DNA of 64,000 bases from Escherichia coli (GCF_030013595.1 NZ_CP122768.1), one strand, 5' to 3'. Numbered from the stretch's first letter, positions 10,715 through 29,806 are shown. Notes: generated by a model from the letters alone, not told the origin. Numbers and translations: made by a program.

Positions 10715-10717
10715 AGG

Positions 10718-11140: not shown

Positions 11141-11742
11141 AATTTTTACCGCTGCTGGCGCTGCTGATTAGCCCGTTTGTGAGCGCCCTGACCCGGGACG
11201 ATCTTCAGCAACGCTTTACCGAACAACCGGTGATCCGCGCCCATTTCGATCAAACCCGGACGATTAAAGATCTGCCGCAGCCGCTGCGATCTCAGGGTCA
11301 GATGTTGATCGCCCGCGACCAGGGGTTATTGTGGGATCAAACCTCACCGTTCCCCATGCAACTATTACTGGACGATAAACGCATGGTGCAGGTGATCAAC
11401 GGTCAGCCGCCGCAAATCATCACGGCAGAAAACAACCCACAGATGTTCCAGTTTAACCACCTGCTGCGCGCGCTGTTCCAGGCCGATCGCAAAGTGCTGG
11501 AACAAAACTTCCGCGTCGAATTTGCCGACAAAGGCGAAGGCCGCTGGACGCTGCGCCTGACGCCGACCACCACGCCGCTGGACAAAATTTTCAACACCAT
11601 CGATCTCGCCGGGCAAACCTATCTGGAGAGCATTCAGCTTAATGATAAACAGGGCGATCGCACCGATATCGCTCTTACCCAACATCAACTGACACCAGCG
11701 CAACTGACCGATGACGAACGCCAACGCTTTGCCACCCAGTAA
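11137..11742 (+). CDS. LolA-like outer-membrane lipoprotein carrier protein
   Basis: 201-aa ORF with signal peptide; LolA-like by recall of family features and position beside the MMPL exporter. Confidence 0.65.
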   Translation: MKFLPLLALLISPFVSALTRDDLQQRFTEQPVIRAHFDQTRTIKDLPQPLRSQGQMLIARDQGLLWDQTSPFPMQLLLDDKRMVQVINGQPPQIITAENNPQMFQFNHLLRALFQADRKVLEQNFRVEFADKGEGRWTLRLTPTTTPLDKIFNTIDLAGQTYLESIQLNDKQGDRTDIALTQHQLTPAQLTDDERQRFATQ

Positions 11743-14029
11743 ACGCCCCGCGCTGTTATGGGGGCTAGTCTGCCTGGTCATGGCGGCGGCGTTGCTGATC
11801 CTGCTGCCACAATCACGACTGAACAGTAGCGTGCTGGCTATGTTACCCAAACAGGCGATGGGCGATATTCCTCCGGCGCTGAATGACGGCTTTATGCAGC
11901 GTCTGGACCGCCAACTGGTGTGGCTGGTCAGCCCCGGTAAAGAGGCTAATCCCAGGGTGGCTCAGGAGTGGCTGACGCTGCTGCAAAAATCCGCTGCGCT
12001 CGGCGACATTAAAGGGCCAATGGATGCCGCCAGCCAGCAGGCGTGGGGAGCGTTTTTCTGGCAGCACCGCAACGGCCTGATTGACCCCGACACCCGCGCC
12101 CGCCTGCAAAATGGCGGCGAAGCGCAGGCGAAGTGGATCCTCTCCCAGCTTTATTCTGCGTTCTCCGGGGTAAGCGGCAAGGAGCTGCAAAACGATCCGC
12201 TGATGTTAATGCGCGGCTCGCAGCTGGCGATGGCGAAAAATGGCCAGCGTTTACGACTAATGGACGGCTGGCTGGTGACGCAGGATCCCCAGGGCAATTA
12301 CTGGTATCTGCTGCACGGCGAACTGGCGGGATCGTCGTTTGATATGCAGCAAACCCACCAGCTCATCACGACCCTGAATACGCTGGAAAAGGCTCTGAAA
12401 ACGCGTTACCCGCAGGCGCAGTTGCTCTCACGCGGCACGGTGTTTTACAGCGATTACGCCAGCCAACAGGCGAAGCAGGATATCTCCACCCTGGGCGTGG
12501 CAACGCTGCTGGGGGTGATATTGCTGATTGTGGCGGTGTTCCGCTCTTTGCGCCCGTTGCTGCTTTGCGTGATTTCCATCGGCATCGGCGCGCTGGCGGG
12601 AACGGCCGCCACATTGTTGATTTTCGGTGAATTACACCTGATGACGCTGGTGATGAGCATGAGCGTTATCGGCATTTCCGCTGACTACACGCTCTATTAT
12701 CTCACCGAGCGGATGGTGCACGGCAACGACGTTTCGCCGTGGCAAAGCCTGGCGAAAGTACGCAATGCCCTGCTGCTGGCGCTGCTCACAACCGTGGCGG
12801 CATATCTGATTATGATGCTCGCCCCCTTCCCCGGCATTCGCCAGATGGCGATTTTTGCCGCCGTCGGGTTGAGCGCCTCTTGTCTGACCGTCCTGTTCTG
12901 GCATCCGTGGCTGTGCCGTGGTCTGCCGGTGCGCCCGGTTCCGGCGATGGCGCTGATGCTACGCTGGCTGGCAGCGTGGCGGCGCAATAAAAAACTGTCG
13001 CGGGGTCTGCCCGTTGCGCTGGCGCTGTTTTCGCTGGCGGGGATGTCAATGCTGCGCGTCGATGACGATATCTCGCAGTTACAGGCGCTGCCGCAGCACA
13101 TTCTGGCGCAGGAGAAAGCCATTACCGCCCTGACCGGACAAAGCGTCGATCAAAAATGGTTTGTAGTTTACGGCGACTCCCCACAGCAAACATTGCGGCG
13201 ACTGGAGAAATATACCGCCTCACTTGAGTATGCGAAAAAAGAGGGGCTTATCAGCAACTACCGCACTATTCCGCTGAACTCCCTGGCGCGGCAGGAGGAA
13301 GACTTAGACCTGCTGAAAACGGCTGCCCCGACGGTAACAAAAGCACTGCAAAATGCAGGGCTGACGGCGGTGAAACCAGATCTCAACGCCATGCCGGTGA
13401 AGGTCGATGAATGGCTGGCAAGCCCCGCCAGTGAAGGCTGGCGTCTGCTGTGGCTGACGCTGGAAAACGGCGAAAGCGGTGTACTGGTGCCGGTTGAAGG
13501 GGTTAAAAGTAGCGCATTGTTGCAGGAAATCGCCAGCTATTACCCTTGCGGCATTGCCTGGGTTGATCGCAAAAGCTCCTTTGATGAATTGTTCGCACTT
13601 TACCGCTACGTCTTAACCGGCTTGTTGCTGGTGGCGCTGGCAGTGATTGCCTGCGGCGCAGTGGCCCGTCTCGGCTGGCGCAAAGGGCTTATCAGCCTGG
13701 TGCCTTCGGTGCTTTCGCTGGGCTGTGGTCTGGCGGTGCTGGCGATGAGCGGGCAGGCGGTGAATCTCTTTTCGCTGCTGGCGCTGGTGCTGGTGCTTGG
13801 CATCGGTATCAACTACACGCTGTTTTTCAGTAATCCGCGCGGTACACCGTTAACTTCGCTACTGGCGATCGCGCTGGCAATGCTCACCACCTTGCTGACG
13901 CTGGGAATGCTGGTATTCAGCGCCACCCAGGCCATCAGCAGTTTTGGCATTGTGCTGGTGAGCGGTATTTTCACCGCCTTCCTGCTTTCGCCGCTGGCTA
14001 TGCCCGATAAAAAGAGAACAAAAAAATGA
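11711..14029 (+). CDS. MMPL/RND-superfamily membrane exporter
   Basis: About 770-aa ORF with two blocks of transmembrane helices separated by soluble domains; exact start codon uncertain. Confidence 0.8.
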   Translation: MTNANALPPSKRPALLWGLVCLVMAAALLILLPQSRLNSSVLAMLPKQAMGDIPPALNDGFMQRLDRQLVWLVSPGKEANPRVAQEWLTLLQKSAALGDIKGPMDAASQQAWGAFFWQHRNGLIDPDTRARLQNGGEAQAKWILSQLYSAFSGVSGKELQNDPLMLMRGSQLAMAKNGQRLRLMDGWLVTQDPQGNYWYLLHGELAGSSFDMQQTHQLITTLNTLEKALKTRYPQAQLLSRGTVFYSDYASQQAKQDISTLGVATLLGVILLIVAVFRSLRPLLLCVISIGIGALAGTAATLLIFGELHLMTLVMSMSVIGISADYTLYYLTERMVHGNDVSPWQSLAKVRNALLLALLTTVAAYLIMMLAPFPGIRQMAIFAAVGLSASCLTVLFWHPWLCRGLPVRPVPAMALMLRWLAAWRRNKKLSRGLPVALALFSLAGMSMLRVDDDISQLQALPQHILAQEKAITALTGQSVDQKWFVVYGDSPQQTLRRLEKYTASLEYAKKEGLISNYRTIPLNSLARQEEDLDLLKTAAPTVTKALQNAGLTAVKPDLNAMPVKVDEWLASPASEGWRLLWLTLENGESGVLVPVEGVKSSALLQEIASYYPCGIAWVDRKSSFDELFALYRYVLTGLLLVALAVIACGAVARLGWRKGLISLVPSVLSLGCGLAVLAMSGQAVNLFSLLALVLVLGIGINYTLFFSNPRGTPLTSLLAIALAMLTTLLTLGMLVFSATQAISSFGIVLVSGIFTAFLLSPLAMPDKKRTKK

Positions 14030-14610
14030 TCAAATCCACATTCTGGCGAGCGTTCGCCCTGACCGCTACGCTTATCCTCACCGGCTGTAGCCACTCGCAA
14101 CCAGAACAGGAAGGCCGCCCGCAGGCGTGGCTGCAACCTGGCACGCGCATCACGCTGCCGGCACCAGGGATTTCACCCGCAGTCAATTCGCAGCAACTGT
14201 TGACCGGCAGCTTCAACGGCAAAACCCAGTCGCTGTTAGTGATGCTTAACGCCGACGATCAGAAAATCACCCTTGCCGGGCTGTCGTCGGTCGGCATTCG
14301 CCTGTTTCTGGTGACCTACGATGCGCAAGGGCTACGCGCCGAGCAATCCATCGTCGTCCCACAGTTACCGCCCGCAAGTCAGGTACTGGCTGACGTGATG
14401 CTCAGCCACTGGCCGATTAGCGCCTGGGAGGCGCAACTTCCCGCAGGATGGACACTTCGCGACAACGGTGACAAACGCGAGCTGCGTAACGCCAGCGGCA
14501 AACTGGTCACGGAAATCACCTATCTGAATCGCCAGGGAAAACGCGTGCCAATCAGAATTGAGCAGCATGTCTTTAAATACCACATCACCATTCAATACTT
14601 AGGTGAATGA
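14026..14610 (+). CDS. Lipoprotein of unknown function
   Basis: 194-aa ORF with lipobox LTGC; ATGA overlap with upstream exporter gene. Confidence 0.65.
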   Translation: MIKSTFWRAFALTATLILTGCSHSQPEQEGRPQAWLQPGTRITLPAPGISPAVNSQQLLTGSFNGKTQSLLVMLNADDQKITLAGLSSVGIRLFLVTYDAQGLRAEQSIVVPQLPPASQVLADVMLSHWPISAWEAQLPAGWTLRDNGDKRELRNASGKLVTEITYLNRQGKRVPIRIEQHVFKYHITIQYLGE

Positions 14611-14611
14611 T

Positions 14612-15781
14612 ATGATTTATATTTCCGCCGTCGGCATGATCAACGCCCTGGGAAATAACCTTGACGAAATCGCAGCCAACCTGGCTCGCGGTGTCGCCCC
14701 CGGCATGCGCCCACGCGCAGGCTGGTTGCAGGGGCATCCGCAGGCGGTCCTGGCTGGCGTGGATGGCGAGCTTCCGCTTATCCCGGAAAAATTCGCTGCG
14801 CATCGCTCGCGCAACAATCAGATCCTGCTGGCGGCGCTGGCGCAGCTCCAGCCGCAGGTTGATGACGCTATCGCGAAATATGGCTGCGAGCGCATCGCGA
14901 TTGTGCTTGGCACCAGCACCTCCGGCCTGCATGAAGGCGACACGCACGTTAACCTGCACACCCACGGGCAGCCGAGCACCACGTGGCACTATGCACAACA
15001 AGAACTCGGCGATCCGTCGCGTTTTCTCAGCCACTGGCTGGCGCTCGACGGCCCGGCTTATACCCTTTCAACCGCCTGCTCCTCCAGTGCCAGAGCAATG
15101 ATCAGCGGGCGCAGGCTTATCGAAGCGGGGCTGGTCGATGCCGCCATTGTGGGTGGCGCAGACACCCTGAGCCGAATGCCGATTAACGGTTTTCACAGCC
15201 TCGAATCGCTCTCGCCAACCTTATGTCAGCCGTTTAGTCGTGACCGCGCAGGTATCACCATTGGTGAAGGGGCGGGGCTAATGCTGCTGACCCGGGAACC
15301 GCAGCCCATCGCGTTGCTGGGCGTTGGTGAATCGAGCGACGCTTACCATATTTCAGCCCCGCATCCGCAGGGCGAAGGAGCGATCCGCGCTATTAATCAG
15401 GCGCTGACCGATGCGCAGCTTACGCCGGATGACGTCGGCTATATCAACCTGCACGGCACCGCCACACAGCTCAACGACCAGATTGAATCAATGGTGGTTA
15501 ACGCCCTGTTTGGCGAACGCGTACCGTGCAGCTCCACCAAACATTTGACCGGACACACGCTCGGCGCGGCTGGCATTACCGAGGCGGCAATTAGTATGTT
15601 GATTTTACAGCGTGATTTACCGCTGCCCGCTCAGGACTTCAGCCTGTCGCCGCGCGATCCCACGCTGCCACCGTGTGGCATTATCGAAAAACCGCAGCCG
15701 CTGGCACGTCCGGTGATCCTGTCCAATTCCTTCGCCTTTGGCGGCAATAACGCCAGCATTCTGCTCGGGAGGGTTTCGTGA
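14612..15781 (+). CDS. Beta-ketoacyl-ACP synthase (FabF/FabB-like KS)
   Basis: About 390-aa ORF with KS catalytic-region motifs (active-site Cys context STACSS, HGTAT, GHTLGAAG); ATG at 14612 preceded by AGGTGA. Confidence 0.85.
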   Translation: MIYISAVGMINALGNNLDEIAANLARGVAPGMRPRAGWLQGHPQAVLAGVDGELPLIPEKFAAHRSRNNQILLAALAQLQPQVDDAIAKYGCERIAIVLGTSTSGLHEGDTHVNLHTHGQPSTTWHYAQQELGDPSRFLSHWLALDGPAYTLSTACSSSARAMISGRRLIEAGLVDAAIVGGADTLSRMPINGFHSLESLSPTLCQPFSRDRAGITIGEGAGLMLLTREPQPIALLGVGESSDAYHISAPHPQGEGAIRAINQALTDAQLTPDDVGYINLHGTATQLNDQIESMVVNALFGERVPCSSTKHLTGHTLGAAGITEAAISMLILQRDLPLPAQDFSLSPRDPTLPPCGIIEKPQPLARPVILSNSFAFGGNNASILLGRVS

Positions 15782-16242
15782 GCCACTATTTATCCCCCGG
15801 CGCTTATCTGCCCCACGACGCGCCCATGTTACTGCTGGAAGACGTGGTGAGCGTCAGCGATGACAGCGCGGTGTGCCGCGTGACGGTTTCGCCCAGTGGC
15901 GTACTGGCACCGTTTCTCGACCCGGACGGCAATCTCCCTGGCTGGTTTGCCCTTGAACTGATGGCGCAAACCGTCGGCGTCTGGTCTGGCTGGCATCGCC
16001 ACCAGCAGGGCAAAAACAGTATTGAGTTAGGGATGATACTGGGCGCGCGTGAATTGCTTTGCACCACTGGCATTCTGCCCGCAGGCCAGACGCTGACCAT
16101 TACCGTCAAACTGCTGATGCAGGACGATCGCTTCGGCAGCTTTGAGTGCAGCATCAACGACGGCGAGGCGACGGGCCGCATTAACACCTTCCAGCCGACC
16201 GCGGAAGAACTTACCACCCTGTTTCAACAAGGAGCGTCCTGA
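15778..16242 (+). CDS. FabA/FabZ-like 3-hydroxyacyl-ACP dehydratase (hot-dog fold)
   Basis: 154-aa ORF, GTG start overlapping upstream stop. Confidence 0.7.
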   Translation: MSHYLSPGAYLPHDAPMLLLEDVVSVSDDSAVCRVTVSPSGVLAPFLDPDGNLPGWFALELMAQTVGVWSGWHRHQQGKNSIELGMILGARELLCTTGILPAGQTLTITVKLLMQDDRFGSFECSINDGEATGRINTFQPTAEELTTLFQQGAS

Positions 16243-16973
16243 TGAGTCGTTCAGTTCTGGTTACTGGTGCCAGCAAAGGCATTGGTCGCGCCATCGCCTG
16301 CAAGCTTGCGGCAGACGGCTTTAACATTGGCGTTCACTATCACCGTGACGCCACAGGCGCTCAGGAAACGCTGAATGCCATTGTCGCCAACGGGGGTAAC
16401 GGGCGTTTGCTCAGTTTCGACGTCGCAAACCGCGAACAGTGTCGGGAAGTGCTGGAGCATGAGATCGCGCAACACGGTGCCTGGTACGGCGTGGTCAGTA
16501 ACGCCGGGATCGCCCGCGATGCCGCTTTTCCGGCTTTAAGCGATGACGACTGGGATGCGGTGATCCACACCAACCTCGACAGTTTCTACAACGTCATTCA
16601 GCCGTGCATTATGCCAATGATCGGCGCGCGCCAGGGTGGGCGCATCATCACGCTGTCCTCGGTTTCCGGCGTAATGGGCAATCGCGGCCAGGTGAATTAC
16701 AGCGCAGCCAAAGCCGGAATTATCGGCGCAACAAAAGCACTGGCTATCGAACTCGCAAAGCGCAAAATCACCGTCAATTGCATCGCGCCAGGGCTTATTG
16801 ATACCGGGATGATCGAAATGGAAGAAAGCGCTCTGAAAGAGGCAATGTCGATGATCCCCATGAAACGTATGGGCCAGGCGGAAGAAGTTGCCGGGCTTGC
16901 CAGTTATTTAATGTCTGATATTGCGGGTTACGTCACCCGCCAGGTTATTTCCATCAACGGAGGGATGTTATGA
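16242..16973 (+). CDS. 3-oxoacyl-ACP reductase (FabG-like short-chain dehydrogenase)
   Basis: 243-aa ORF with NAD(P)-binding TGASKGIGRA and SDR catalytic YSAAK motif. Confidence 0.9.
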   Translation: MSRSVLVTGASKGIGRAIACKLAADGFNIGVHYHRDATGAQETLNAIVANGGNGRLLSFDVANREQCREVLEHEIAQHGAWYGVVSNAGIARDAAFPALSDDDWDAVIHTNLDSFYNVIQPCIMPMIGARQGGRIITLSSVSGVMGNRGQVNYSAAKAGIIGATKALAIELAKRKITVNCIAPGLIDTGMIEMEESALKEAMSMIPMKRMGQAEEVAGLASYLMSDIAGYVTRQVISINGGML

Positions 16974-18199
16974 CACGTCGCGTAGTGATTACAGGAATGG
17001 GCGGCGTGACTGCCTTTGGTGAAAACTGGCAGGACGTTTCTGCACGCTTACTGGCGTATGAAAATGCGGTGCGCAAAATGCCGGAGTGGCAGGTCTACGA
17101 TGGGCTGCACACCCTGCTTGGCGCGCCTGTTGATGATTTCACGCTACCGGAGCACTACACCCGCAAGCGTATCCGTGCGATGGGCCGCGTGTCGCAAATG
17201 TCGACCCGTGCCAGCGAGCTGGCGTTAGAGCAGGCAGGGTTGATTGGCGATCCGATATTAACCAGCGGCGAAACGGGCATTGCGTACGGTTCATCGACCG
17301 GCAGTACCGGTCCGGTGAGCGAATTTGCCACCATGCTGACTGAAAAGCACACGAACAACATCACTGGCACCACCTATGTGCAGATGATGCCGCACACCAC
17401 CGCTGTTAATACTGGCCTCTTTTTCGGCCTGCGCGGGCGGGTGATCCCAACCTCCAGCGCCTGTACCTCCGGCAGCCAGGCGATCGGTTATGCGTGGGAA
17501 GCCATTCGCCACGGTTATCAAACGGTGATGGTTGCCGGTGGTGCCGAAGAGTTATGCCCTTCAGAAGCAGCAGTGTTTGATACCCTTTTTGCCACCAGCC
17601 AGCACAATGATGCGCCGAAAACCACACCTTCACCGTTCGATGAAAACCGCGACGGACTGGTGATTGGTGAAGGCGCAGGTACGCTCATTCTCGAAGAACT
17701 GGAGCATGCCAAAGCGCGCGGCGCGACCATTTACGGTGAAATCGTCGGCTTTGCGACGAACTGCGACGCGGCACATATTACCCAGCCGCAGCGCGAAACC
17801 ATGCAGTATTGTATGGAGCAATCGCTGAAAATCGCAGGGTTAAGCGCACAAGATATCGGCTATATTTCAGCGCATGGTACGGCGACCGATCGCGGTGATA
17901 TGGCAGAAAGTCTGGCGACAGCAACCATTTACGGTGATAATGTGCCGCTCTCCTCGCTGAAAAGTTATTTTGGTCATACGCTTGGTGCCTGTGGCGCGCT
18001 CGAAGCCTGGATGAGTCTGCAAATGATGCGCGAAGGTTGGTTTGCGCCTACGCTAAACCTGAATAAACCAGACCCGAATTGTGGCGCGCTGGATTACATC
18101 ATGCATGAAGCCCGCAGGGTTGATTGTGAGTTTTTGCAGAGTAACAACTTTGCCTTTGGCGGCATTAATACATCCATCATTATTAAGCGCTGGCCCTGA
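16970..18199 (+). CDS. Beta-ketoacyl-ACP synthase (FabB/FabF-like KS)
   Basis: 409-aa ORF with KS motifs (SSACTSG, HGTAT, GHTLGACG); ATGA overlap with reductase gene. Confidence 0.9.
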   Translation: MTRRVVITGMGGVTAFGENWQDVSARLLAYENAVRKMPEWQVYDGLHTLLGAPVDDFTLPEHYTRKRIRAMGRVSQMSTRASELALEQAGLIGDPILTSGETGIAYGSSTGSTGPVSEFATMLTEKHTNNITGTTYVQMMPHTTAVNTGLFFGLRGRVIPTSSACTSGSQAIGYAWEAIRHGYQTVMVAGGAEELCPSEAAVFDTLFATSQHNDAPKTTPSPFDENRDGLVIGEGAGTLILEELEHAKARGATIYGEIVGFATNCDAAHITQPQRETMQYCMEQSLKIAGLSAQDIGYISAHGTATDRGDMAESLATATIYGDNVPLSSLKSYFGHTLGACGALEAWMSLQMMREGWFAPTLNLNKPDPNCGALDYIMHEARRVDCEFLQSNNFAFGGINTSIIIKRWP

Positions 18200-18206
18200 G
18201 TTATAC

Positions 18207-18229
18207 AACCACATGGACATCCCATGTGG
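18207..18229 (+). terminator. Hairpin immediately after the last cluster gene (weak terminator candidate)
   Basis: accacatgg / ccatgtggt inverted repeat with 5-nt loop; no strong T-run, so low confidence. Confidence 0.3.
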
Positions 18230-19038
18230 TGATTCTTCAAAAAATCTGAATCAATGAATATGAACCTCAAATTCTCTTACGCATACTGAAGAGCATTCCG
18301 TATAACGATTCAGCAGACAAAACTTTATCAGTCCACACGAATCAACGGATGCACAGATGACACGCCCGGTTATCACCGGGCAATGGTTGCCATAACGGGT
18401 AACATAAGGGACTGAACAGTTGTCTTTAGCGCAACGAACTGATCTAACGTACCTGAACGGACAACCTGAAAACAGTCTTTCACCCTGCATTGTCCGCCAG
18501 TGCTTATTACCAACCACGTCTGTTGCAGTAAAGTAATCAGTTGCGAACATTATTTATCAATCGTGACGCTGGCTCGCGCATGGCAGAAAAGGTCCTGACT
18601 GAGCAACAACAGGCATCGTACTGTTGCTGCTCCATGTTGTTTATATGAACGCATCCCGTTTGCAAGGCTTCCGTGTTTTTGACGTTGACGGTAGATTGCT
18701 GCTCTATATCCTTATTGCAGCCGGTGCTGCGGGCCTCAATGAGATTCGCTGACTCTCGCCTTATTCACGCAACGAGCTTTAAGCTCAGAAAAACATCCAA
18801 GTTTGGTGAGTCACAGTCTTACCTGTCGTTGTCATCAATATAGGAATGGATAATCTGGAGAGCGATACTGCAGGCTGATATTGCGGTTTTGCGACAAGTT
18901 TTTAGCATCCGCTTCTACGCCAAATACCTGAAGTAGGAATGGATGCGTTAGCAGCATACATCCGGAACTGCGCGGGGAATAGCCGGAAACGGCTATCCCT
19001 ACCACAATAGCTAACTTTGTAATAGCGCTCTTTTAGGC

Positions 19039-20070
19039 TCATGTACTCTGACGTAATTCTATCTGGTAGTTGAATTGCACGATACGCGACTCTTCTGATT
19101 CATCATGATTATTATTCAATAGTCCAATCAGTAACTTACCTGTCTCTATCCCCATTTTTTTGTAGTCAATACGGATGGATGTCAAAGTTGGGTGTGTTTG
19201 ATCGCAATTGTCTGAACCGTCAAGACAAGCTACAGCGATATTTCCAGGGATTTTTAACAAACGCCGCTGGCACTCAAACATTATACCCAGCGCAATCTCT
19301 TCGTGGCTGCAAATCACAGCATCCAGCTCTGGTTGTCGCAGTAATATCTCGTTTAATGCGTAACGCCCCAATTGCAGACTTGCGGCATCCGGCATGGTGA
19401 TAACAAGATCAGTGTTCTGGTAATGGCTCAGCATTGCTTTATGCCAGCCGTTCAGTTGCTGACGTTGCAGGCGGTTGTCCATATGCGCACCGATAAATCC
19501 GATATTCTTATAACCCTGCTCCAGCAGATGTTCGGTCAGTTTATGTGATGCTTCAAAAAATGCTGTTTCGATGGTAATTTGAGCCGGACTGAAAGGGGAA
19601 CCGATAACGTTAATGGTAGGTATATTTGTTTTCTCGAGTATCTGGTGAGTTTTATCAGCCAACTGAGAACCAAAAATAACTAACGCCGCCGGGTTGCCTT
19701 GAAGAAGCGTCATCAGAATTTCAGCTTCTTTGAGCTGATTATACTCATGACACCCAAGCAGTAGCTGGAATTCATTTTTATTAAGCACCTGCTGTAATGA
19801 CTGCATAAAGCGGGAGCTGGCTTTATCTGTCAGGGAAGGAACCAGTACGGCGACTGTATGACTGTGACCAGATGCAAGGGCGCCAGCAGTTCTGTTGGGA
19901 ATATAACCCAACTCTTCTACGGCCTGTTCTATCTTTTCCCTCAGCTTGTCAGAAACCTGTTCCGGTGTTCTCAGCGCGCGGGAAACGGTCATAGTTCCGA
20001 CACCTGCAAAGTTAGCGACCTCCTGCAGCGTCACCCGTCCGGTACCACGGCGCTTACGTGTTTTTTCCAT
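19039..20070 (-). CDS. LacI/GalR-family transcriptional regulator
   Basis: 343-aa ORF with N-terminal HTH (VTLQEVANFAGVGTMTVSRAL) and periplasmic-binding-protein-like sugar-binding domain. Confidence 0.9.
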   Translation of the reverse strand: MEKTRKRRGTGRVTLQEVANFAGVGTMTVSRALRTPEQVSDKLREKIEQAVEELGYIPNRTAGALASGHSHTVAVLVPSLTDKASSRFMQSLQQVLNKNEFQLLLGCHEYNQLKEAEILMTLLQGNPAALVIFGSQLADKTHQILEKTNIPTINVIGSPFSPAQITIETAFFEASHKLTEHLLEQGYKNIGFIGAHMDNRLQRQQLNGWHKAMLSHYQNTDLVITMPDAASLQLGRYALNEILLRQPELDAVICSHEEIALGIMFECQRRLLKIPGNIAVACLDGSDNCDQTHPTLTSIRIDYKKMGIETGKLLIGLLNNNHDESEESRIVQFNYQIELRQST

Positions 20071-20215
20071 TTCGACTCCATGGATAATTACAACCAGCTG
20101 TTTTCATTACTTTTATTTCACCATTACTCTTTCCAGTTTTTGCCCACGGTAGCAAATATCCTGTTGCATTGTATATGCAGGAACCGAATATAGCCAAAGC
20201 ATGGCGGCAGAGAAA

Positions 20216-20263
20216 TGATAGCGCTATCACAAAGATTGGTAGCGTTATCAGATAGCGCTATCA
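20216..20263. promoter_or_regulatory. Two copies of a 14-bp palindrome (TGATAGCGCTATCA and AGATAGCGCTATCA), candidate LacI-family operators
   Basis: Perfect and near-perfect palindromes at 20216-20229 and 20250-20263, in the divergent intergenic region between the regulator and the PTS operon. Confidence 0.55.
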
Positions 20264-20340
20264 AATGCGACAATCATCACATTAATTAATGCGTAAAATA
20301 TCTACTCTCCTGTTAATTATCATCGGGAGTTATCAGTAGC

Positions 20341-20784
20341 ATGTTAAAAAATCTATTAAATACAGAGGTCGTTCAGGTCGTGGAACAGGTCAAAGACTGG
20401 CGGGAAGCCGTGGCGATTTCATGCCGACCGTTGATTGAAAACGGCTCTATCGAACCGCGTTATGTTGATGCGATCTATCACTCGCACGACACTATCGGTC
20501 CGTACTATGTGGTTGGCCCTGGTATTGCGATGCCTCATGCGCGCCCGGAAGAGGGGGCTAACAAGCTGTCATTAGCACTGACCCTGATCCCTTCAGGTGT
20601 GAATTTTGATGCCGATGAAAACGATCCAGTGAAATTACTGATTGTGCTGGCTGCAACCGACAGTACCAGCCACATTGAAGCGATTTCTCAACTCGCCAAG
20701 TTATTCGATAACGAAAAAGACATACAGGCCATTTTGACGGCCAAAACGACGCAGGACATTTTGTCTGTTATTGCGCGCTATTAA
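20341..20784 (+). CDS. PTS EIIA component (mannitol/fructose/ascorbate-type EIIA)
   Basis: 147-aa ORF with active-site His context (GIAMPHAR). Confidence 0.85.
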   Translation: MLKNLLNTEVVQVVEQVKDWREAVAISCRPLIENGSIEPRYVDAIYHSHDTIGPYYVVGPGIAMPHARPEEGANKLSLALTLIPSGVNFDADENDPVKLLIVLAATDSTSHIEAISQLAKLFDNEKDIQAILTAKTTQDILSVIARY

Positions 20785-20799
20785 TCCAGAGGAACATTT

Positions 20800-21087
20800 A
20801 TGAAAATTACAGTGGTTTGCGGTAACGGCTTAGGCACCAGCCTGATGATGGAAATGAGCATTAAAAGCATTTTGAAGGATTTGTCCGTCAGCGCTGATGT
20901 TGATCACGTCGACCTGGGCTCCGCGAAAGGGACGCCGAGTGATATCTATGTCGGCACCAAAGACATTGCCGAGCAGTTAGCCGCGCAGTCTGTCGCAGGC
21001 AAAATCGTCGCACTGGAAAATATGATTGATAAGAAAGCCATGAGAGAACGTTTGTCCGTGGTATTAACCGAATTAGGCGCACTGTAA
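20800..21087 (+). CDS. PTS EIIB component (ascorbate/galactitol-type)
   Basis: 95-aa ORF with N-terminal phospho-Cys motif VVCGNGLGTS. Confidence 0.85.
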   Translation: MKITVVCGNGLGTSLMMEMSIKSILKDLSVSADVDHVDLGSAKGTPSDIYVGTKDIAEQLAAQSVAGKIVALENMIDKKAMRERLSVVLTELGAL

Positions 21088-21099
21088 GCTGGGGGCGAT

Positions 21100-22356
21100 A
21101 TGGATTTCTTTCGTTTTTTGATGAGCGATGTACTTTCCGAACCCGCAGTGCTGGTCGGTTTAATCGCCCTGATTGGCCTGATTGCACAGAAAAAACCGGT
21201 AACCGAATGCATTAAAGGTACCGTCAAGACCATTATGGGGTTTGTGATTTTAGGCGCAGGGGCGGGTTTAGTTGTGTCGTCACTGGGTGACTTCGCAAAC
21301 ATTTTCCAGCATGCCTTTGGTATTCAGGGTGTAGTGCCGAACAATGAAGCCATTGTTTCCGTAGCGCAGAAAAGCTTCGGGAAAGAAATGGCGATGATTA
21401 TGTTCTTTGCGATGGTTATCAACATTATGATTGCCCGTTTCACACCGTGGAAATTTATCTTCCTGACCGGTCATCACACGTTGTTTATGTCGATGATGGT
21501 AGCGGTAATTCTGGCAACAGCAGGCATGACCGGCATTACGCTTATAGCCGTTGGCTCTTTGGTTGTTGGCGTGGCAATGGTCTTTTTCCCGGCTATTGCG
21601 CATCCGTACATGAAGAAAGTGACCGGTTCTGATGACGTTGCCATCGGCCACTTCTCAACATTATCTTATGTATTGGCCGGTTTCATCGGCAGCAAGTTTG
21701 GTAATAAAGAGCACTCGACTGAAGACATGAATGTGCCGAAAAGTCTGCTGTTCTTGCGCGACACGCCGGTTGCTATCTCTTTTACCATGAGCATAATTTT
21801 CCTGGTGACGTGCCTGTTTGCGGGTGCAGATGCGGTGAAAGAGCTTAGCGGTGGTAAAAACTGGTTCATGTTCTCTATCATGCAATCCATTACCTTCGCA
21901 GCTGGCGTGTACATCATTCTGCAGGGTGTGCGCATGGTGATTGCGGAGATTGTCCCGGCATTCAAAGGTATTTCAGACAAGCTGGTTCCGAATGCCAGAC
22001 CTGCTCTCGATTGCCCGGTCGTCTTCCCTTACGCACCTAACGCTGTACTGGTTGGTTTCCTGAGTAGCTTTGCTGCAGGTTTAATCGGTATGTTCACGTT
22101 GTATCTGCTGAACATGATCGTGATTATTCCTGGTGTGGTGCCGCACTTCTTCGTAGGTGCAGCTGCAGGGGTATTCGGTAATGCAACGGGTGGACGTCGT
22201 GGTGCGATTTTGGGTGCCTTCGCTCAGGGCTTGCTTATTACCTTCCTGCCAGTATTCTTATTGCCGGTGCTGGGTGATATTGGTTTTGCTAACACCACCT
22301 TCAGTGATGCTGACTTTGGCGCACTGGGTATTTTGTTAGGGATTATCGTTCGCTAA
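21100..22356 (+). CDS. PTS EIIC permease (UlaA/SgaT family)
   Basis: 418-aa polytopic membrane ORF following IIA and IIB. Confidence 0.85.
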   Translation: MDFFRFLMSDVLSEPAVLVGLIALIGLIAQKKPVTECIKGTVKTIMGFVILGAGAGLVVSSLGDFANIFQHAFGIQGVVPNNEAIVSVAQKSFGKEMAMIMFFAMVINIMIARFTPWKFIFLTGHHTLFMSMMVAVILATAGMTGITLIAVGSLVVGVAMVFFPAIAHPYMKKVTGSDDVAIGHFSTLSYVLAGFIGSKFGNKEHSTEDMNVPKSLLFLRDTPVAISFTMSIIFLVTCLFAGADAVKELSGGKNWFMFSIMQSITFAAGVYIILQGVRMVIAEIVPAFKGISDKLVPNARPALDCPVVFPYAPNAVLVGFLSSFAAGLIGMFTLYLLNMIVIIPGVVPHFFVGAAAGVFGNATGGRRGAILGAFAQGLLITFLPVFLLPVLGDIGFANTTFSDADFGALGILLGIIVR

Positions 22357-22369
22357 TATTTTGATGACA

Positions 22370-22425
22370 TTAATATCCTCCAGGATTTCAGGAACGTGGA
22401 GGATATTAATTCCTCTTATTTTCTC
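22370..22425 (+). terminator. Rho-independent terminator after the PTS EIIC gene
   Basis: Perfect 13-bp inverted repeat ttaatatcctcca / tggaggatattaa (22370-22382, 22397-22409) followed by T-rich tract. Confidence 0.6.
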
Positions 22426-22571
22426 CATTTTTCTTTCTTCCAGTCAGGACTGCATCCGATTAATCGTAAGCGCTCCGAGAAGTACGTAGCGTAAGGATTA
22501 TTTTACAGCTGAGAAGTTTCAGTGCAGCAGTTCATGCACACGGTTCGACGGCTAGTCATTGATCTTCATAA

Positions 22572-22856
22572 TTACCTCGCGTAAAAAACGGGGTAAGGCC
22601 GCTCATCCAGCGTCATCTCCACAGGTAATAATTCAACGCCAATGCCAGAAGAGTTCGTTACCGGAAGACGCCGTGATATACGCCCTTTGATCAGCGAGAG
22701 CCTGAGCCATTTGAACAGAAGATTATCATTGATATCATGCTCCCGGGCAATACGGGCAACAGAACCCCTTGGTTGTAAAGCCAGTTTAACCATTTGAAGT
22801 TTAAACTCATTTGAAAATGACCTGCGGGGTTCAACTGATAATGTTTTTTGTTCCAT
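22572..22856 (-). mobile_element. IS3-family transposase OrfA-like remnant (degraded)
   Basis: 94-aa ORF with the helix-turn-helix region typical of IS3-family OrfA (FSNEFKLQMVKLA...SVARIAREHDINDNLLFKWLR); no intact second transposase ORF or terminal repeats seen. Confidence 0.5.
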
Positions 22857-23277
22857 AACAGGTGTCCACTAGTTGAAAAGGTGGGTACCTATGTTACCAA
22901 TACTGGCTTAATGGCTACATACAGCAGTCGGTTTACGCATACACTTTTATAGTGCACTCCGGCCTCATGAATATAACGGTGGATTACCGCCGAACGAATC
23001 GGAAAATAGATACTGGAAAAAAACTGAAATTGTGACCAGTTTTTGTTGACCACTACAAATAAATAAAAGAGTTGCAGTGCTTGCTCGGTAAGAAAACAAT
23101 GGAGGTTAAGCTCCTCAAAGAAGCTGTGGAGTACACCACTCTACAGTAGTTGCGCAAATTTGGAGTGGACGATAATGTGATCGTCTATAAGGGCAACGCT
23201 ATCATAGTCTTGTCCTGGCGGGTAAAAAAACGCGCTTACCTTAACGATAAGCGCGCCGCTGTTCAGGCCTTGAGTGG

Positions 23278-24291
23278 TTATTCAATTCCTGTGGTGACTG
23301 TAAAAGTGCGCGTTTGCTGCGGTGCAACCTGAATCAGCGTGCCATTACGTTGCGCGGCAAGATACCCCTCAGGCCGACAGGTTGCAGGTAATGCAAAGGC
23401 GGCTACCTGTTGCTCTCCGTTATAAAGGATCCAGCGTGTCACATAATTTAGTTCAGCACTGTAGAAACGAGTAACAAACGTAGTGCCATCGGGAGAGATC
23501 ATGCGAAACTCTGGCTGATCTGTATAAGCGTCCAGTTTGTCTGCAAAGAAGACAATTTCTGGATCATAAAATTCCGGTTGACTCAGCGTCGACAGAGAGG
23601 CTTCTCCCTGCATAATCCGTTGATTAAACGCCAGCCACTGAGCGGTGGGATTAACATGCGAAGGCACTGATTCACGCAATCTTAATATTTCGTCCGGGAT
23701 ATTCTGGCTGAATGTAGCATTTGGTATATATGCATAATTCATGTGGCACATATATTGTAGTGGCATATCTACAGAAGCCAGATTGGTTACGGCCATCTTA
23801 ATATCGAACAGTGTAGAGGATTTGTGAAGGACCACTGTTGGCTGAGCCAGATAATGATGACCGAAACCCATTACATACTCGTAACGCCCGTTAAGGCGTA
23901 ACATATCTCCGTCTAATTCCAGCCATGCTTCATCCATCGCGGCACAGGCCATTTCACCGTGTAGCAGATGAGTATCTTCCACAGATGGGCAGCCATTAGC
24001 CAGCAAACCTGAATGAAAAGCAAAACAGCCATAGGTCTCTATCACCTCTGTCGCCGGTTTAGGCTGGCGAAACATATTGCACATGGTGAGGCCGTGTCCA
24101 TCAAATTGCGCATCCCAAATCATCTGCCCCATCCAGGGAAGAATAATCAAATGTCCACGACTGTTTGCAATTTTAAGCCCCTCGACACCGCTGTCATATC
24201 GAAAAGACGTGACAGTAAAATCACTATTTTCCAGCAAGATACGAGGTTTCTCGCCAAAAAGCGCCCGCCACAAATTAATACGCGTACTCAT
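23278..24291 (-). CDS. deoX: DeoX-like protein of the deoxyribose operon (function unknown, possibly mutarotase-like)
   Basis: 337-aa ORF downstream of the kinase and permease in the same orientation; assignment by operon synteny with Salmonella/pathogenic E. coli deoK-deoP-deoX as recalled. Confidence 0.55.
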   Translation of the reverse strand: MSTRINLWRALFGEKPRILLENSDFTVTSFRYDSGVEGLKIANSRGHLIILPWMGQMIWDAQFDGHGLTMCNMFRQPKPATEVIETYGCFAFHSGLLANGCPSVEDTHLLHGEMACAAMDEAWLELDGDMLRLNGRYEYVMGFGHHYLAQPTVVLHKSSTLFDIKMAVTNLASVDMPLQYMCHMNYAYIPNATFSQNIPDEILRLRESVPSHVNPTAQWLAFNQRIMQGEASLSTLSQPEFYDPEIVFFADKLDAYTDQPEFRMISPDGTTFVTRFYSAELNYVTRWILYNGEQQVAAFALPATCRPEGYLAAQRNGTLIQVAPQQTRTFTVTTGIE

Positions 24292-24302
24292 AACGATTCT
24301 CC

Positions 24303-25619
24303 TCAGGACGCTGTGACTTCAGCCAGTGCGGTACGTACTTTGCTTTCACGCCAGAAGTAGACTCCGACATAGACAAAGCAGAGCATAGAAACCAGGAATG
24401 AAAGCTGTAGTGAGTGGAACATATCTGCAATATATCCCTGAATTGCCGGAACCACCGCGGCACCGACAATAGCCATAACAATGACTGCTCCTGCCATTTC
24501 TGTATGTTCGTTATCAACTGTATCCAGTGTTCCTGCATAGATCGTCGCCCAGCAAGGGCCAAACAAAACACTTACCAGGACGGCGACATAGACCGCGCTG
24601 AAACTTGGAGCCAGTGCAACATATGCCAGGAACAGCGCCCCTATAACGGAATAGAGAATCAATACTTTTTCCGGATTAAAACGCGTCATAAGGATATTGG
24701 CTATAAACTTGCCAATAAAGAAGCAGGCAAAGCTATAGACCATGAAGTTTGAAGCATCACGTTCGTTGATATCGCCCAACTCCAGCGCCAGACGGATGGT
24801 AAATGACCATACTGCGACCTGCATACCCACATAAAGGAACTGCGCCACAATACCGCGACGAAAGCGCGGATTTCTAGCCAGATAGCGCAGCGTATCCATT
24901 GCTGACGGGCGTTTATGGTGACTTGTCTGTGCCACTTTACAGGTTGGGAAGCGGGTTAAAAGGAACAACACCATGACCACAACCAGAATCATAATCATAT
25001 ACTTATACGGTTCAAGGGTGTTCTCTAACATCAGCACCTTAAAGTTGTGAATTTGCTCGGCGTTCATTCCTGACATCTGCTTTTCAAGGCTTTCCCCCTC
25101 GGAGAAAACCAGATATTTGCCCAATAAAATACCAGACGCAGCACCAATCGGATAAAAGGTCTGGCTGATATTGAGCCGCAATGTGGCATAGGCTTTTGGA
25201 CCGATCATTGAACTGTATGTGTTCGCTGCAGTTTCAAGGAAACTCAGGCCAATCGCAATCGCAAAAATAGCTGCAAGGAACATAGTGTAGGTTGCCATAT
25301 GCGAGGCAGGGAAAAAAAGTGTACAACCACCAATATACAGCGTCAGGCCAATTAAAATTGCCACCTTATAACTGGTCTTTTTAATCACAAGGGATGCTGG
25401 TATTGCAATTAAAAAATAACCTCCATAAAATGCGCTCTGCACCAATGCTGAAGCAAAGTTACTTAGCGAAAATACACTTTTGAATTGAGTGATTAATATG
25501 TCATTTAATGCAGCTGCGCATCCCCATAGCGGGAATAAACACGATAACAAAATAAACTGGAACAAGGGAGTCTTATTCAGATACCCATCAGGCATCTGAA
25601 TGATGTTTTTATCGTTCAT
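24303..25619 (-). CDS. deoP: MFS sugar permease, FucP family (DeoP-like deoxyribose permease)
   Basis: 438-aa 12-helix MFS ORF; FucP-like N-terminus. Confidence 0.7.
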   Translation of the reverse strand: MNDKNIIQMPDGYLNKTPLFQFILLSCLFPLWGCAAALNDILITQFKSVFSLSNFASALVQSAFYGGYFLIAIPASLVIKKTSYKVAILIGLTLYIGGCTLFFPASHMATYTMFLAAIFAIAIGLSFLETAANTYSSMIGPKAYATLRLNISQTFYPIGAASGILLGKYLVFSEGESLEKQMSGMNAEQIHNFKVLMLENTLEPYKYMIMILVVVMVLFLLTRFPTCKVAQTSHHKRPSAMDTLRYLARNPRFRRGIVAQFLYVGMQVAVWSFTIRLALELGDINERDASNFMVYSFACFFIGKFIANILMTRFNPEKVLILYSVIGALFLAYVALAPSFSAVYVAVLVSVLFGPCWATIYAGTLDTVDNEHTEMAGAVIVMAIVGAAVVPAIQGYIADMFHSLQLSFLVSMLCFVYVGVYFWRESKVRTALAEVTAS

Positions 25620-25646
25620 AGTGCTACCTTTAACTGTGCAGGATGA

Positions 25647-26557
25647 TTATTCGTTTAAGGTTAAAAATTCATTAAATTGTTCAATACTCGGATAAGATGA
25701 TTGCGTACCTTTCCCTGTGACGCTGAAAGCGGCAAAGAGAGCGGCTTTTTTCAAAGCGGCTTCAACATCACCGCTTTGAACATAATAATGGGAAAAGCAA
25801 CCAATAAATGCGTCACCAGCGCCACTAGTATCAACAGCATTTACTTTGAATGCAGGAACATGGACTTCCTGATCGCGGGTCATCCATAATGCGCCTTTTT
25901 CGCTCATGGTAACAATAATATTGTTCAGCCCTTTATCAACTAACGAACGTGCGGCCAAACGAATATGATCATAAGTATCAACCGACATACCGGTTAATAT
26001 TTCCAGTTCTGTTTCATTCGGGATAAAGAAATCACATTTGCAGGCATAAGACATATCTAACTCACGCAATGCCGGAGCCGGATTTAATAACACTTCAATA
26101 CCATTTTTCTTACCAAACTCAATCGCGTGGTAAACTGTTTCCAGTTGAACTTCCAGTTGTAAAACGATCAATTTGCATTTTTTCAGATCTTCTGCAGCTC
26201 GATCGATATCTTCCGGGGAAAGAAATTTATTCGCTCCCTTAATTATTAATATACTATTGCTCGAGTTGGCATTAACAAAGATCGGTGCAACACCACTGCT
26301 GGTACAGGGGACTTTCTCAACATAAGTGGTATTAATTCCCCATGATTCGAGATTACGAATAGTATTATCCGCAAAAATATCATCACCTACTTTAGTCAGC
26401 ATCAGGACTTTTGAATTCAATTTAGCCGCCGCCACCGCTTGATTAGCACCTTTCCCACCACATCCGATTTTGAAGGCAGGTGCTTCCAGAGTTTCTCCTT
26501 CTTTAGGCATCTGATTAGTGTAAGTAATGAGATCCACCATATTGGAACCAATAACTG
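25647..26557 (-). pseudogene. deoK: Ribokinase-family sugar kinase (DeoK-like deoxyribokinase), 5' end removed by IS1
   Basis: PfkB/ribokinase motifs (GGKGANQAVAAA, DTSGAGDAF); reading frame runs upstream (VIGSNMVDL...) straight into the IS1 end at 26558 with no start codon or promoter. Confidence 0.7.
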
Positions 26558-26572
26558 GGTAATGACTCCAAC

Positions 26573-27076
26573 TTACTGATAGTGTTTTATGTTCAGATAA
26601 TGCCCGATGACCTTGTCATGCAGCTCCACCGATTTTGAGAACGACAGTGACTTCCGTCCCAGCCTTGCCAGATGTTGTCTCAGATTCAGGTTATGCCGCT
26701 CAATGCGCTGAGTATAACGCTTGCTGATAACGTGCAGCTTTCCCTTCAGGCGTGATTCATACAGCGGCCAGCCATCCGTCATCCATACCACGACCTCAAA
26801 GGCCGACAGCAGGCTCAGAAGACGCTCCAGTGTGGCCAGAGTGCGTTCACCGAAGACGTGCGCCACAACCGTCCTCCGCATCCTGTCATACGCGTAAAAC
26901 AGCCAGCGCTGACGTGATTTAGCACCGACGTAGCCCCACTGTTCGTCCATTTCAGCGCAGACAATCACATCACTGCCCGGTTGTATGCGCGAGGTTACCG
27001 ACTGCGGCCTGAGTTTTTTAAGTGGCGGAAAATCGTGTTGAGGCCAACGCCAATAATGCGTGCACTGGCGCGACAT
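26573..27076 (-). CDS. insB: IS1 transposase InsB reading frame
   Basis: 167-aa ORF matching IS1 InsB with a few substitutions relative to the K-12 copy as recalled. Confidence 0.9.
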
Positions 27077-27270
27077 CCGACGCCATTCATGGCCATATCA
27101 ATGATTTTCTGGTGCGTACCGGGCTGAGAGGCGGCGTAAGTGAACTGTAGTTGCCATGTTTTACGGCAGTGAGAGCAGAGATAGCGCTGATGTCCGGCGG
27201 TGCTTTTGCCGTTACGCACCACCCCGTCAGTAGCTGAACAGGAGGGACAGCTGATAGAAACAGAAGCCAC
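26995..27270 (-). CDS. insA: IS1 InsA
   Basis: 91-aa [19 protein letters not shown]...; start codon here is GTG. Confidence 0.9.
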
Positions 27271-27325
27271 TGGAGCACCTCAAAAACACCATCATACACT
27301 AAATCAGTAAGTTGGCAGCATCACC

Positions 27326-28027
27326 GACAATGCAGATGGTTCAACCATGCTGGATAAACGTTATGTCATCACTAACGGTAATCAGCTGGCGATTCAAAAT
27401 GATTTACTGGAGAGTTTATCAAAAGCGTTAAACCAACCGTGGCCACAACGAATGCAGGAGATGCTCCAGCAAATTTTGCCTCATCGTGGTGCGTTATTAA
27501 CTAATTTTTATCAGGCACATGATTATTTACTGCATGGCGATGATAAATCATTGAACCGTGCCAGTGAATTATTAGGTGAGATTGTTCAATCATCCCCAGA
27601 ATTTACCTACGCGAGAGCAGAAAAAGCATTAGTTGATATCGTGCGCCATTCTCAACATCCTTTAGATGAAAAACAATTAGCAGCACTGAACACAGACATA
27701 GATAACATTGTTACACTACCGGAATTGAATAACCTGTCCATTATATATCAAATAAAAGCGGTCAGTGCTCTGGTAAAAGGTAAAACAGATGAGTCTTACC
27801 AGGCGATAAATACTGGCATTGATCTTGAAATGTCCTGGCTAAATTATGTGTTGCTTGGCAAGGTTTATGAAATGAAGGGGATGAACCGGGAAGCAGCTGA
27901 TGCATATCTCACCGCCTTTAATTTACGCCCAGGGGCAAACACCCTTTACTGGATTGAAAATGGTATATTCCAGACTTCTGTTCCTTATGTTGTACCTTAT
28001 CTCGACAAATTTCTCGCTTCAGAATAA
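27326..28027 (+). pseudogene. cadC: cadC 3' fragment (C-terminal about 233 codons of the ToxR-like activator); 5' half replaced by IS1
   Basis: ORF ends about 365 bp upstream of cadB in the position and orientation of cadC; begins abruptly at the IS1 end. Confidence 0.8.
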
Positions 28028-28392
28028 GTAACTCCCGGGTTGATTTATGCTCGGCAAGATTTGTTGTTGAGTTTTTGTATGTTTCTGTTGGTATAATATG
28101 TTGCGGCAATTTATTTGCCGCATAATTTTTATTACATAAATTTAACCAGAAAATGTCCCACAATCCATTGTAAATATTGAATGTTTATCTTTTCATGATA
28201 TCAACTTGCGATCCTGATGTGTTAATAAAAAACCTCAAGTTCTCACTTACAGAAACTTTTGTGTTATTTCACCTAATCTTTAGGATTAATCCTTTTTTCG
28301 TGAGTATTCTTAGCGCCAGTTTGGTCTGGTCAGGAAATAGTTATACATCATGACCCGGACTCCAAATTCAAAAATGAAATTAGGAGAAGAGC
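28028..28392 (+). promoter_or_regulatory. cadBA promoter/regulatory region (Pcad)
   Basis: Conserved intergenic region between cadC and cadB; individual CadC sites not mapped. Confidence 0.5.
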
Positions 28393-29727: not shown

Positions 29728-29806
29728 TTAAAAGTATTTTCCGAGGCTCCTCCTTTCATTTTGTCCCATGTGTTGGGAGGGGCCTTTTTTACCTGGAGAT
29801 ATGACT

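Follow-up and report, generated by a model that had tools for sequence, protein, structure and literature searches.

Why does a sugar transporter of the L-ascorbate family stand in the Escherichia coli chromosome with no enzyme for the sugar-phosphate that it would deliver? The question is raised by positions 19039-22356 of a 64,000-nucleotide stretch of E. coli DNA (GCF_030013595.1, NZ_CP122768.1; hereafter the window), which carries genes of a phosphoenolpyruvate (PEP)-dependent phosphotransferase system (PTS). A sequence-only reading of the window had described a three-gene module, and had proposed that its catabolic genes were lost at a neighbouring insertion sequence (IS) or that the substrate feeds an unlinked pathway. 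The three transporter genes, vpeA, vpeB and vpeC, are real and form co-directional open reading frames (ORFs) in the order IIA-IIB-IIC, but the span holds four genes, the divergent regulator vpeR (343 amino acids, aa) having gone unmentioned. Our analysis leads us to conclude, with a probability of about 0.85, that vpeR-vpeABC is a complete, self-sufficient and horizontally mobile four-gene cassette for the PTS uptake of one carbohydrate.

The locus is not new, having been published as the vpe operon. The operon was described in uropathogenic E. coli AL511 (Martinez-Jehanne 2012, Infect Immun 80:2655, as summarised in PMC5382810 and PMC6455142). The published pheV island has, in order, an OI-138-like cluster (ORFs 17-33), vpe (ORFs 34-37), one ORF and deoK (ORFs 39-42) (PMC6455142), and strain NCTC 86 carries vpe and deoK on one region of difference (PMC5382810). 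The gene order of the window, in which an OI-138-like fatty-acid cluster is followed by the four vpe genes, a transposase ORF and deoK, is the same as the published order (PMC6455142; PMC5382810). Positions 18200-23300 are 100% identical to E. coli O141:H4 P13-6, and at least 80% of this segment is present in 926 of 5426 complete E. coli genomes.

The reading of vpe as a complete cassette is carried by its occurrence in other bacteria. VpeC has relatives that are 83-99% identical in 80 species representatives, which include Buttiauxella, Yersinia, Brenneria, Providencia, Proteus and Edwardsiella, and also Photorhabdus, Xenorhabdus, Vibrio, Photobacterium, Grimontia and Aeromonas. Using tblastn, the A-B-C order was observed to be the same in all 80 loci except one Y. 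pestis assembly, which has vpeC only. A copy of vpeR was found in 78 loci; for the 80 species loci the figure is 72. The homology that blastn detected with each other genus extends from 19031-19041 to 22355-22363, and these limits correspond to the stop codons of vpeR and vpeC. The flanks are ackA-pta on one side and yfcD/yfcE on the other in Yersinia, Brenneria and Proteus, a HAD hydrolase gene and phoU-pstBAC in Buttiauxella, Dryocola and Enterobacter R1, a fimbrial operon and a bgl PTS in Klebsiella sp. BIGb0407, and mostly unique neighbours in Vibrio. The two neighbouring genes on either side fall into 129 distinct families, with no Pfam family present in more than three of these on a Pfam scan. 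Among these 129 families no recurrent kinase, isomerase, aldolase or lactonase was found beside the cassette, and ulaG, ulaD, ulaE, ulaF and a UlaR-type regulator were absent from the window and the related loci examined. Alanine racemase, a BCCT transporter, LuxR/PAS regulators, a subtilase and the Proteus pyrroloquinoline quinone (PQQ)-dependent glucose dehydrogenase were rejected as candidates, being lineage-specific and mutually unrelated.

Since the same four genes occur elsewhere with no IS and no recurrent enzyme, the IS junction has cost the operon no catabolic genes, and the first alternative of the sequence-only reading is refuted. The comparison with IS-free genomes, which that reading had offered as a check, found the cassette still without catabolic genes in 80 species. 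As a refutation it had named orthologous loci that are equally three-gene and functional for a defined substrate; the orthologous loci are indeed equally free of enzymes, but a defined substrate has been assigned nowhere, and that of vpe is still reported as unknown (bioRxiv 10.1101/2020.08.12.249037). Because the cassette consists of the same four genes wherever it is found, its product would be used by unlinked enzymes, and this second alternative is the one that is left, supported by inference.

The four genes are also maintained. In comparison with Buttiauxella, the ratio of nonsynonymous to synonymous divergence (dN/dS) was 0.010 for vpeC, 0.036 for vpeB, 0.051 for vpeA and 0.047 for vpeR, with dS values of ~0.7-1.1; all four genes are thus under strong purifying selection.

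Departures from the four-gene form were observed in a few lineages. Among the 80 species loci, vpeR was not found in Xenorhabdus (L074, L080, L081, L083, L084), Fukatsuia (L077), Serratia microhaemolytica (L086) and one Y. pestis assembly. In Xenorhabdus, a gene for a BCCT-family transporter lies directly upstream of vpeABC in the same orientation. The Y. pestis assembly, NCTC5923 (L032, 1-8000), has a vpeC that is 95% identical, and vpeR, vpeA and vpeB were undetected in the 8 kb upstream; set beside the VpeA relative in PDB entry 3oxp, this vpeC-only state suggests that the cassette was disrupted in particular strains. Some E. coli genomes have a disrupted operon, of which they retain just the 3' part of vpeC (from ~21479), beside the IS66-family element ISEc23.

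By its sequence, VpeABC is an L-ascorbate-family (TC 4.A.7) PTS Enzyme II, and on this point the sequence-only reading holds. In addition to its strong match to the EIIC-GAT family (Table 1), VpeC matches the UlaA structures 4rp8/4rp9 with E = 2.5e-50, UlaA being its only solved homologue. The two proteins share 30% identity over unequal lengths (418 aa and 465 aa), and VpeC, which is TCDB entry 4.A.7.1.2, is without the 11th transmembrane segment (TM11) of UlaA (PMC6048161). The top matches of VpeC are the ascorbate-type IIC models of NCBIfam (NF006919, 628 bits), and its score of 592 bits against the UlaA equivalog does not reach the cut-off of 890. The UlaA mechanistic residues G58, G286, R288, H135, H194, D314 and F362 are kept in VpeC and its aligned orthologues. 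UlaA contacts ascorbate through T86, Y87, H135, I136, Q139, H194, Q195, D314, I358, F362 and M410 (PMC6048161). Six of these 11 contacts are changed in VpeC (T86N, Y87E, I136H, Q139F, Q195F and M410F/I), I358V being a conservative change, and the substitutions are invariant among VpeC orthologues save at the M410 position, which is F or I.

The phosphorelay proteins align with their Ula counterparts: the predicted phosphorylatable His66 of VpeA with UlaC His68, and the predicted catalytic Cys7 of VpeB, in the motif VVCGNGLGTS, with UlaB Cys9. From what is known of the family, phosphate would pass from PEP through Enzyme I and HPr to VpeA His66, then to VpeB Cys7 and finally to the substrate held in VpeC. 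VpeC would act as an elevator-type permease, so that the substrate would enter the cell in phosphorylated form. PDB entry 3oxp, annotated as a PTS enzyme IIA component only, matches VpeA with 240 bits, and entry 3d8u matches a domain of VpeR with 231 bits; these structural-genomics entries are probably orthologues of the two proteins and have no functional annotation.

The regulator offers a second view of the system. The best NCBIfam matches of VpeR are P. aeruginosa GntR (278.6 bits; cut-off 400), IdnR (207; cut-off 500) and E. coli GntR (175; cut-off 433). The 270-bp divergent region between vpeR and vpeA holds three sites of the TGATAGCGCTATCA type, the predicted operators O1 to O3. They are the sole matches with two or fewer mismatches in the 64-kb window, where 0.25 would be expected by chance. 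Most loci that carry vpeR have two or three of these sites upstream of the vpeA start, at about -125, -104 and -91, with O1 (about -125) present in nearly all; the exact palindrome occurs in most of these loci, and the remaining vpeR loci have variants with up to two mismatches. No operators were found upstream of vpeA in loci without vpeR, and operator and vpeR therefore co-occur. No extra VpeR sites were found elsewhere in the window, and outside the vpeR-vpeA intergenic region the related loci gave scattered matches with one or two mismatches. A spacing of 21-22 bp is a recognised arrangement of cooperative LacI-family sites, and a spacing of 13 bp with overlap is described as typical for operators of the GntR group (PMC4052901). 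The P. aeruginosa regulator GntR (PA2320) has the operator core TAGCGCT and responds to gluconate and 6-phosphogluconate (PMC5902321).

A CRP-like site directly follows O3. Its pattern, TGnGA-N6-TCACA, recurs in most of the genera examined: it is kept in the Enterobacteriaceae and Yersinia sequences and in Aeromonas (TCGCGA...CTCACA), Photorhabdus has a perfect TGTGA-N6-TCACT, one half-site is present in Vibrio, and Providencia and Edwardsiella are without the site. In Photorhabdus luminescens (L065, ~7070-7227), tandem GACAGARGAC-like repeats lie in the vpeA leader between the operators and the start codon, and are absent from the other aligned genera. Cyclic AMP (cAMP)-CRP may act at the CRP-like site. 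VpeR bound to the three operators would repress vpeABC, the substrate or its phosphorylated product would relieve this repression, and cAMP-CRP at the adjacent conserved site would boost transcription. Repression by VpeR combined with activation by CRP is how operons for catabolic uptake are usually controlled.

Table 1. Positions of the vpe genes, the predicted control sites and the flanking elements in the window
Feature	Coordinates	Strand	Basis or remark
vpeR, LacI-family repressor, GntR/IdnR clade	19039-20070	minus	Pfam LacI helix-turn-helix + Peripla_BP_1/3
Predicted operator O1, TGATAGCGCTATCA	20216-20229		perfect 14-bp palindrome
Predicted operator O2, TGGTAGCGTTATCA	20237-20250		21 bp from O1
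Predicted operator O3, AGATAGCGCTATCA	20250-20263		13 bp from O2, overlapping O2
CRP-like site, TGCGAcaatcaTCACA	20266-20281		directly after O3; TGCGA-N6-TCACA, read from sequence
vpeA, PTS Enzyme IIA (PTS_EIIA_2)	20341-20784	plus	Pfam E = 1.8e-36
vpeB, PTS Enzyme IIB (PTS_IIB)	20800-21087	plus	Pfam E = 7.8e-13
vpeC, PTS Enzyme IIC (EIIC-GAT, PF03611), 418 aa	21100-22356	plus	Pfam E = 4.3e-150
Hairpin + T-rich tail, probable intrinsic terminator	22363-22415	plus	-21.3 kcal/mol, z = -3.4
IS66-family remnant, internally deleted (tnpC 3' + tnpA fragments)	22458-22942	minus	NCBIfam, megablast
deoX-deoP-deoK, separate deoxyribose operon, 5' end cut by IS1	23278-26557	minus	domains, literature gene order (PMC6455142)

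It is probable that the Vpe product enters central metabolism directly, and that for this reason no enzyme genes travel with the cassette. Its use would be simplest by the core enzymes of the pentose-phosphate or Entner-Doudoroff pathways. The leading candidates for the substrate are gluconate or a close aldonate, giving 6-phosphogluconate, and a ketose, for example a ketopentose or heptulose, whose phosphate transketolase or transaldolase would accept. The nearest IICs outside the Vpe clade are metagenomic, 50-53% identical to VpeC, and their predicted pocket is identical to that of VpeC or nearly so, with the signature N82 E83 H125 H126 F129 H184 F185 D304 V/I347 F351 F396. One of them (P0121) shares an operon with genes for transketolase and two SIS_2 isomerases, another (P0122) beside a TAL/FSA-type transaldolase, and a third (P0123) in a bare IIA-IIB-IIC trio. 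In two Proteus loci (L052, L054; ~9300-11800) a PQQ-dependent glucose dehydrogenase of 798 aa (PF01011, 1.5e-220) is encoded one or two genes downstream of vpeC. This adjacency is suggestive of gluconate or gluconolactone as the substrate, and is seen in one lineage only.

Five explanations of the locus have to be weighed. A truncated operon, in which the IS next to vpeC removed catabolic genes (lactonase, decarboxylase, epimerases, aldolase) and left the transporter orphaned, could point to the IS remnant 100-600 bp past vpeC and to ula, the characterised member of the family, in which ulaDEF come right after the transporter genes. We consider it extremely improbable, since in 80 species without the IS the cassette does not extend past the vpeC stop codon and gives way to unrelated genes, the dN/dS values of 0.01-0.05 are those of maintained genes, and the hairpin terminator precedes the remnant. 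It is also improbable that Vpe is a second transporter for L-ascorbate or an analogue such as erythorbate, with the ascorbate-6-phosphate handled by unlinked ulaG/ulaDEF. NCBIfam and PGAP do name VpeC 'PTS ascorbate transporter subunit IIC', UlaA is its sole solved homologue and the ula regulon lies elsewhere in E. coli; against this stand the 30% identity to UlaA, the six contacts that are chemically different and essentially fixed in orthologues, the shortfall against the UlaA equivalog and a LacI/GntR-like regulator in place of the DeoR-type UlaR. The pocket thus makes L-ascorbate an unlikely substrate. A mainly regulatory role, in which the phosphorelay is a sensor whose phosphorylation state controls capsule and virulence genes instead of carbon supply, would agree with the catabolic genes being attached nowhere and, as the phenotype is summarised in PMC5382810 and PMC6455142, with vpeBC mutants that have less capsule-like material and are attenuated. 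We think there is little chance of this, because a full permease, extreme purifying selection, LacI-type repression and a CRP-like site make up the standard layout for catabolic uptake, and neither a PRD nor any other output domain is linked in loci of the VpeR type.

The two substrate classes are harder to separate. In the aldonate explanation, gluconate (or 2- or 5-ketogluconate, idonate or gulonate) would be converted to 6-phosphogluconate or a close relative, and we hold this as a tentative possibility; that the product would pass into the Entner-Doudoroff or pentose-phosphate pathway without a dedicated enzyme, and would also induce VpeR, we put forward with the same reserve. The regulator speaks for it, through its best profiles (P. 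aeruginosa GntR, IdnR and E. coli GntR), a score of 170 bits to the PDB 'GntR' entry 3h5o, the TAGCGCT core in common with the gluconate/6-phosphogluconate-responsive GntR of P. aeruginosa (PMC5902321) and the overlapping operators 13 bp apart that are typical of GntR orthologues (PMC4052901). So does the PQQ glucose dehydrogenase one or two genes away in Proteus, and redundancy with GntT/U/P and GntK might mask a growth phenotype. The score of VpeR below all equivalog cut-offs, the restriction of the Proteus gcd adjacency to one lineage and the linkage of same-pocket IICs to transketolase, transaldolase and SIS isomerases instead of gluconate enzymes speak against it, and we know of no gluconate PTS in the ascorbate family. 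A ketopentose or heptulose substrate (xylulose, ribulose, sedoheptulose or similar), whose phosphate ester would be an intermediate of the pentose-phosphate pathway, is likewise possible without being probable. It is favoured by those same-pocket relatives at 50-53% identity, and by a pneumococcal ascorbate-type PTS beside a split transketolase for which ketopentoses were proposed (PMC3302838); the reported capsule defect of vpeBC mutants (PMC5382810) would be consistent with sugars derived from ribulose-5-phosphate or sedoheptulose-7-phosphate being supplied, a speculative link. An identity of ~50% is, however, no guarantee of the same substrate, the pneumococcal proposal is itself without experimental confirmation (PMC3302838), and the regulator evidence favours aldonates. 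At its sharpest, and held as a doubtful proposition, our reading is that Vpe is a widespread gammaproteobacterial PTS which converts gluconate or a close aldonate to 6-phosphogluconate, sensed by a GntR-derived repressor.

Several points weigh against our reading of vpe as a self-sufficient uptake cassette and of its likely substrate. Transport, phosphorylation and repression by the Vpe proteins are predicted from sequence, and secondary descriptions together with gene order are the basis on which the locus is identified with the AL511 vpe operon. Some lineages can dispense with the regulator, as Xenorhabdus, Fukatsuia and S. microhaemolytica keep vpeABC without vpeR. A consensus promoter scan gave 10 matches against 7.8 ± 3.3 in shuffled sequence, and placed no promoter with confidence. 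The substrate leads disagree on the compound, since VpeR would point to aldonates and the IIC relatives to a neutral ketose; both lead to a product used directly by central pathways. VpeR lies below every GntR/IdnR equivalog cut-off, and LacI-family regulators at ~40% identity often differ in effector.

Downstream of vpeC, the sequence-only reading had placed a strong terminator followed by an IS3 remnant. The hairpin is there, with a 14-bp core stem whose z-score was taken against shuffled sequences, but its T-rich tract is interrupted and a simple terminator scan found just a 6-bp version of it; it is a plausible terminator, less canonical than 'strong' would imply, and it lies outside the DNA common to the other genera. 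The IS3 label has to be rejected. The ORF at 22572-22856 (minus strand) scored 66.3 and 60.3 bits with IS66 TnpA models and 21.9 bits with IS3 (cut-off 160), and in megablast searches 22458-22581 matched annotated IS66 tnpC and 22601-22942 matched IS66 tnpA.

The operon itself has no linked catabolic enzyme, as had been claimed, but a PfkB-type kinase and an epimerase-like gene lie nearby, in the separate deoK operon. This region encodes, on the minus strand, an aldose-1-epimerase-like protein (23278-24291), a FucP-type permease and a PfkB/ribokinase-type kinase (25647-26540), which places the epimerase-like and kinase genes 0.9-4.2 kb downstream of vpeC on the opposite strand. We rejected deoK and deoX as the 'missing' kinase and epimerase, as they belong to an operon with its own permease on the opposite strand and are not found beside the cassette in other genera; deoK is further not the missing kinase because the product of a PTS is already phosphorylated. 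A copy of IS1 (26558-27325) replaces the first 10 nucleotides of deoK, the homology to P13-6 ends at 26557, and the deoK promoter and the regulator deoQ are gone with this replacement. At its far end the IS1 meets a 3' fragment of cadC (27347-28027; CadC residues 292-515), and it looks like an IS1-mediated deletion joined the island to the truncated cadC. No complete RefSeq E. coli genome was found to cover at least 80% of 22300-30300.

Upstream of vpeR, positions 11711-18199 and beyond carry a cluster of the fatty-acid/aryl-polyene type, which corresponds to the OI-138-like genes of the pheV islands and includes an MMPL transporter, a LolA-like protein, DUF3261, ketosynthases, ApeP/ApeI dehydratases and FabG2. 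In an enterobacterial metagenome-assembled genome (L021), the same fatty-acid cluster is present on the other side of the cassette, inverted. An Rfam scan of 18000-23500 gave sub-threshold matches only: the small RNA AfaR, with 33 bits (gathering threshold 100), at 22839-23043 (plus strand), within or beside the IS66 remnant, and a Moco riboswitch, with 24.8 bits (gathering threshold 36), at 18887-19028 (plus strand), just past the end of vpeR. The two matches are probably noise; the source of AfaR is the afa-8 island, carried by the strains from which vpe was reported.

The vpe operon promotes colonisation, with reported roles in sepsis, in colonisation of the kidney and gut and in capsule-like material; the published vpeBC mutants, as summarised in PMC5382810 and PMC6455142, have less of this material and are attenuated. 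It is a published determinant of fitness and virulence in extraintestinal E. coli. As the outcome of a genome scan the finding is ordinary, and the earlier observation was confirmed in part and its interpretation supported in part; the residual value lies in the substrate leads. The operon is not IS-damaged, but is a minimal, strongly conserved cassette common to Yersinia, Proteus, Photorhabdus, Vibrio and Aeromonas. The search for the substrate is narrowed to aldonates and pentose-phosphate ketoses in the first place, with ascorbate unlikely, and the VpeR operator provides a handle for a reporter. If true, the conversion of gluconate to 6-phosphogluconate would de-orphan a virulence-associated transporter and explain the absent catabolic genes.

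Comparison with known systems places the locus as follows. By description, the vpe operon of AL511 and of the pheV and pheU islands does not differ from that of the window. Each has four ORFs of the same functions between an OI-138-like cluster and the deoK operon, the IIC falls short of UlaA in length and has no TM11, and a minority of E. coli genomes carry vpe; the deoK operon is additionally cut by IS1 here. With Ula (SgaTBA; TC 4.A.7.1.1), Vpe shares the three-protein family, the IIA histidine and the IIB cysteine, and VpeC also has the elevator pivots G58/G286, R288 and the core residues H135/H194/D314. It differs in gene order, the K-12 order ulaA (IIC)-ulaB (IIB)-ulaC (IIA) being the reverse of vpe, a contrast that the sequence-only reading had drawn correctly, and in having the LacI/GntR-like VpeR in place of the DeoR-type UlaR and neither ulaG nor ulaDEF. 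The GntR/IdnR group resembles VpeR in the operator core TAGCGCT, as in P. aeruginosa GntR, and in the multiple operators that include an overlapping pair 13 bp apart, but VpeR controls a PTS and not a GntP-type permease with gluconokinase. The Firmicute-type operons, such as S. pneumoniae SP2129-30 with the split transketolase SP2127/8, likewise encode an ascorbate-family PTS, the likeness of SP2129 being by description only; they have multidomain PRD/EIIA regulators and pentose-phosphate enzymes, whereas Vpe has a LacI-type repressor and travels with no enzymes.

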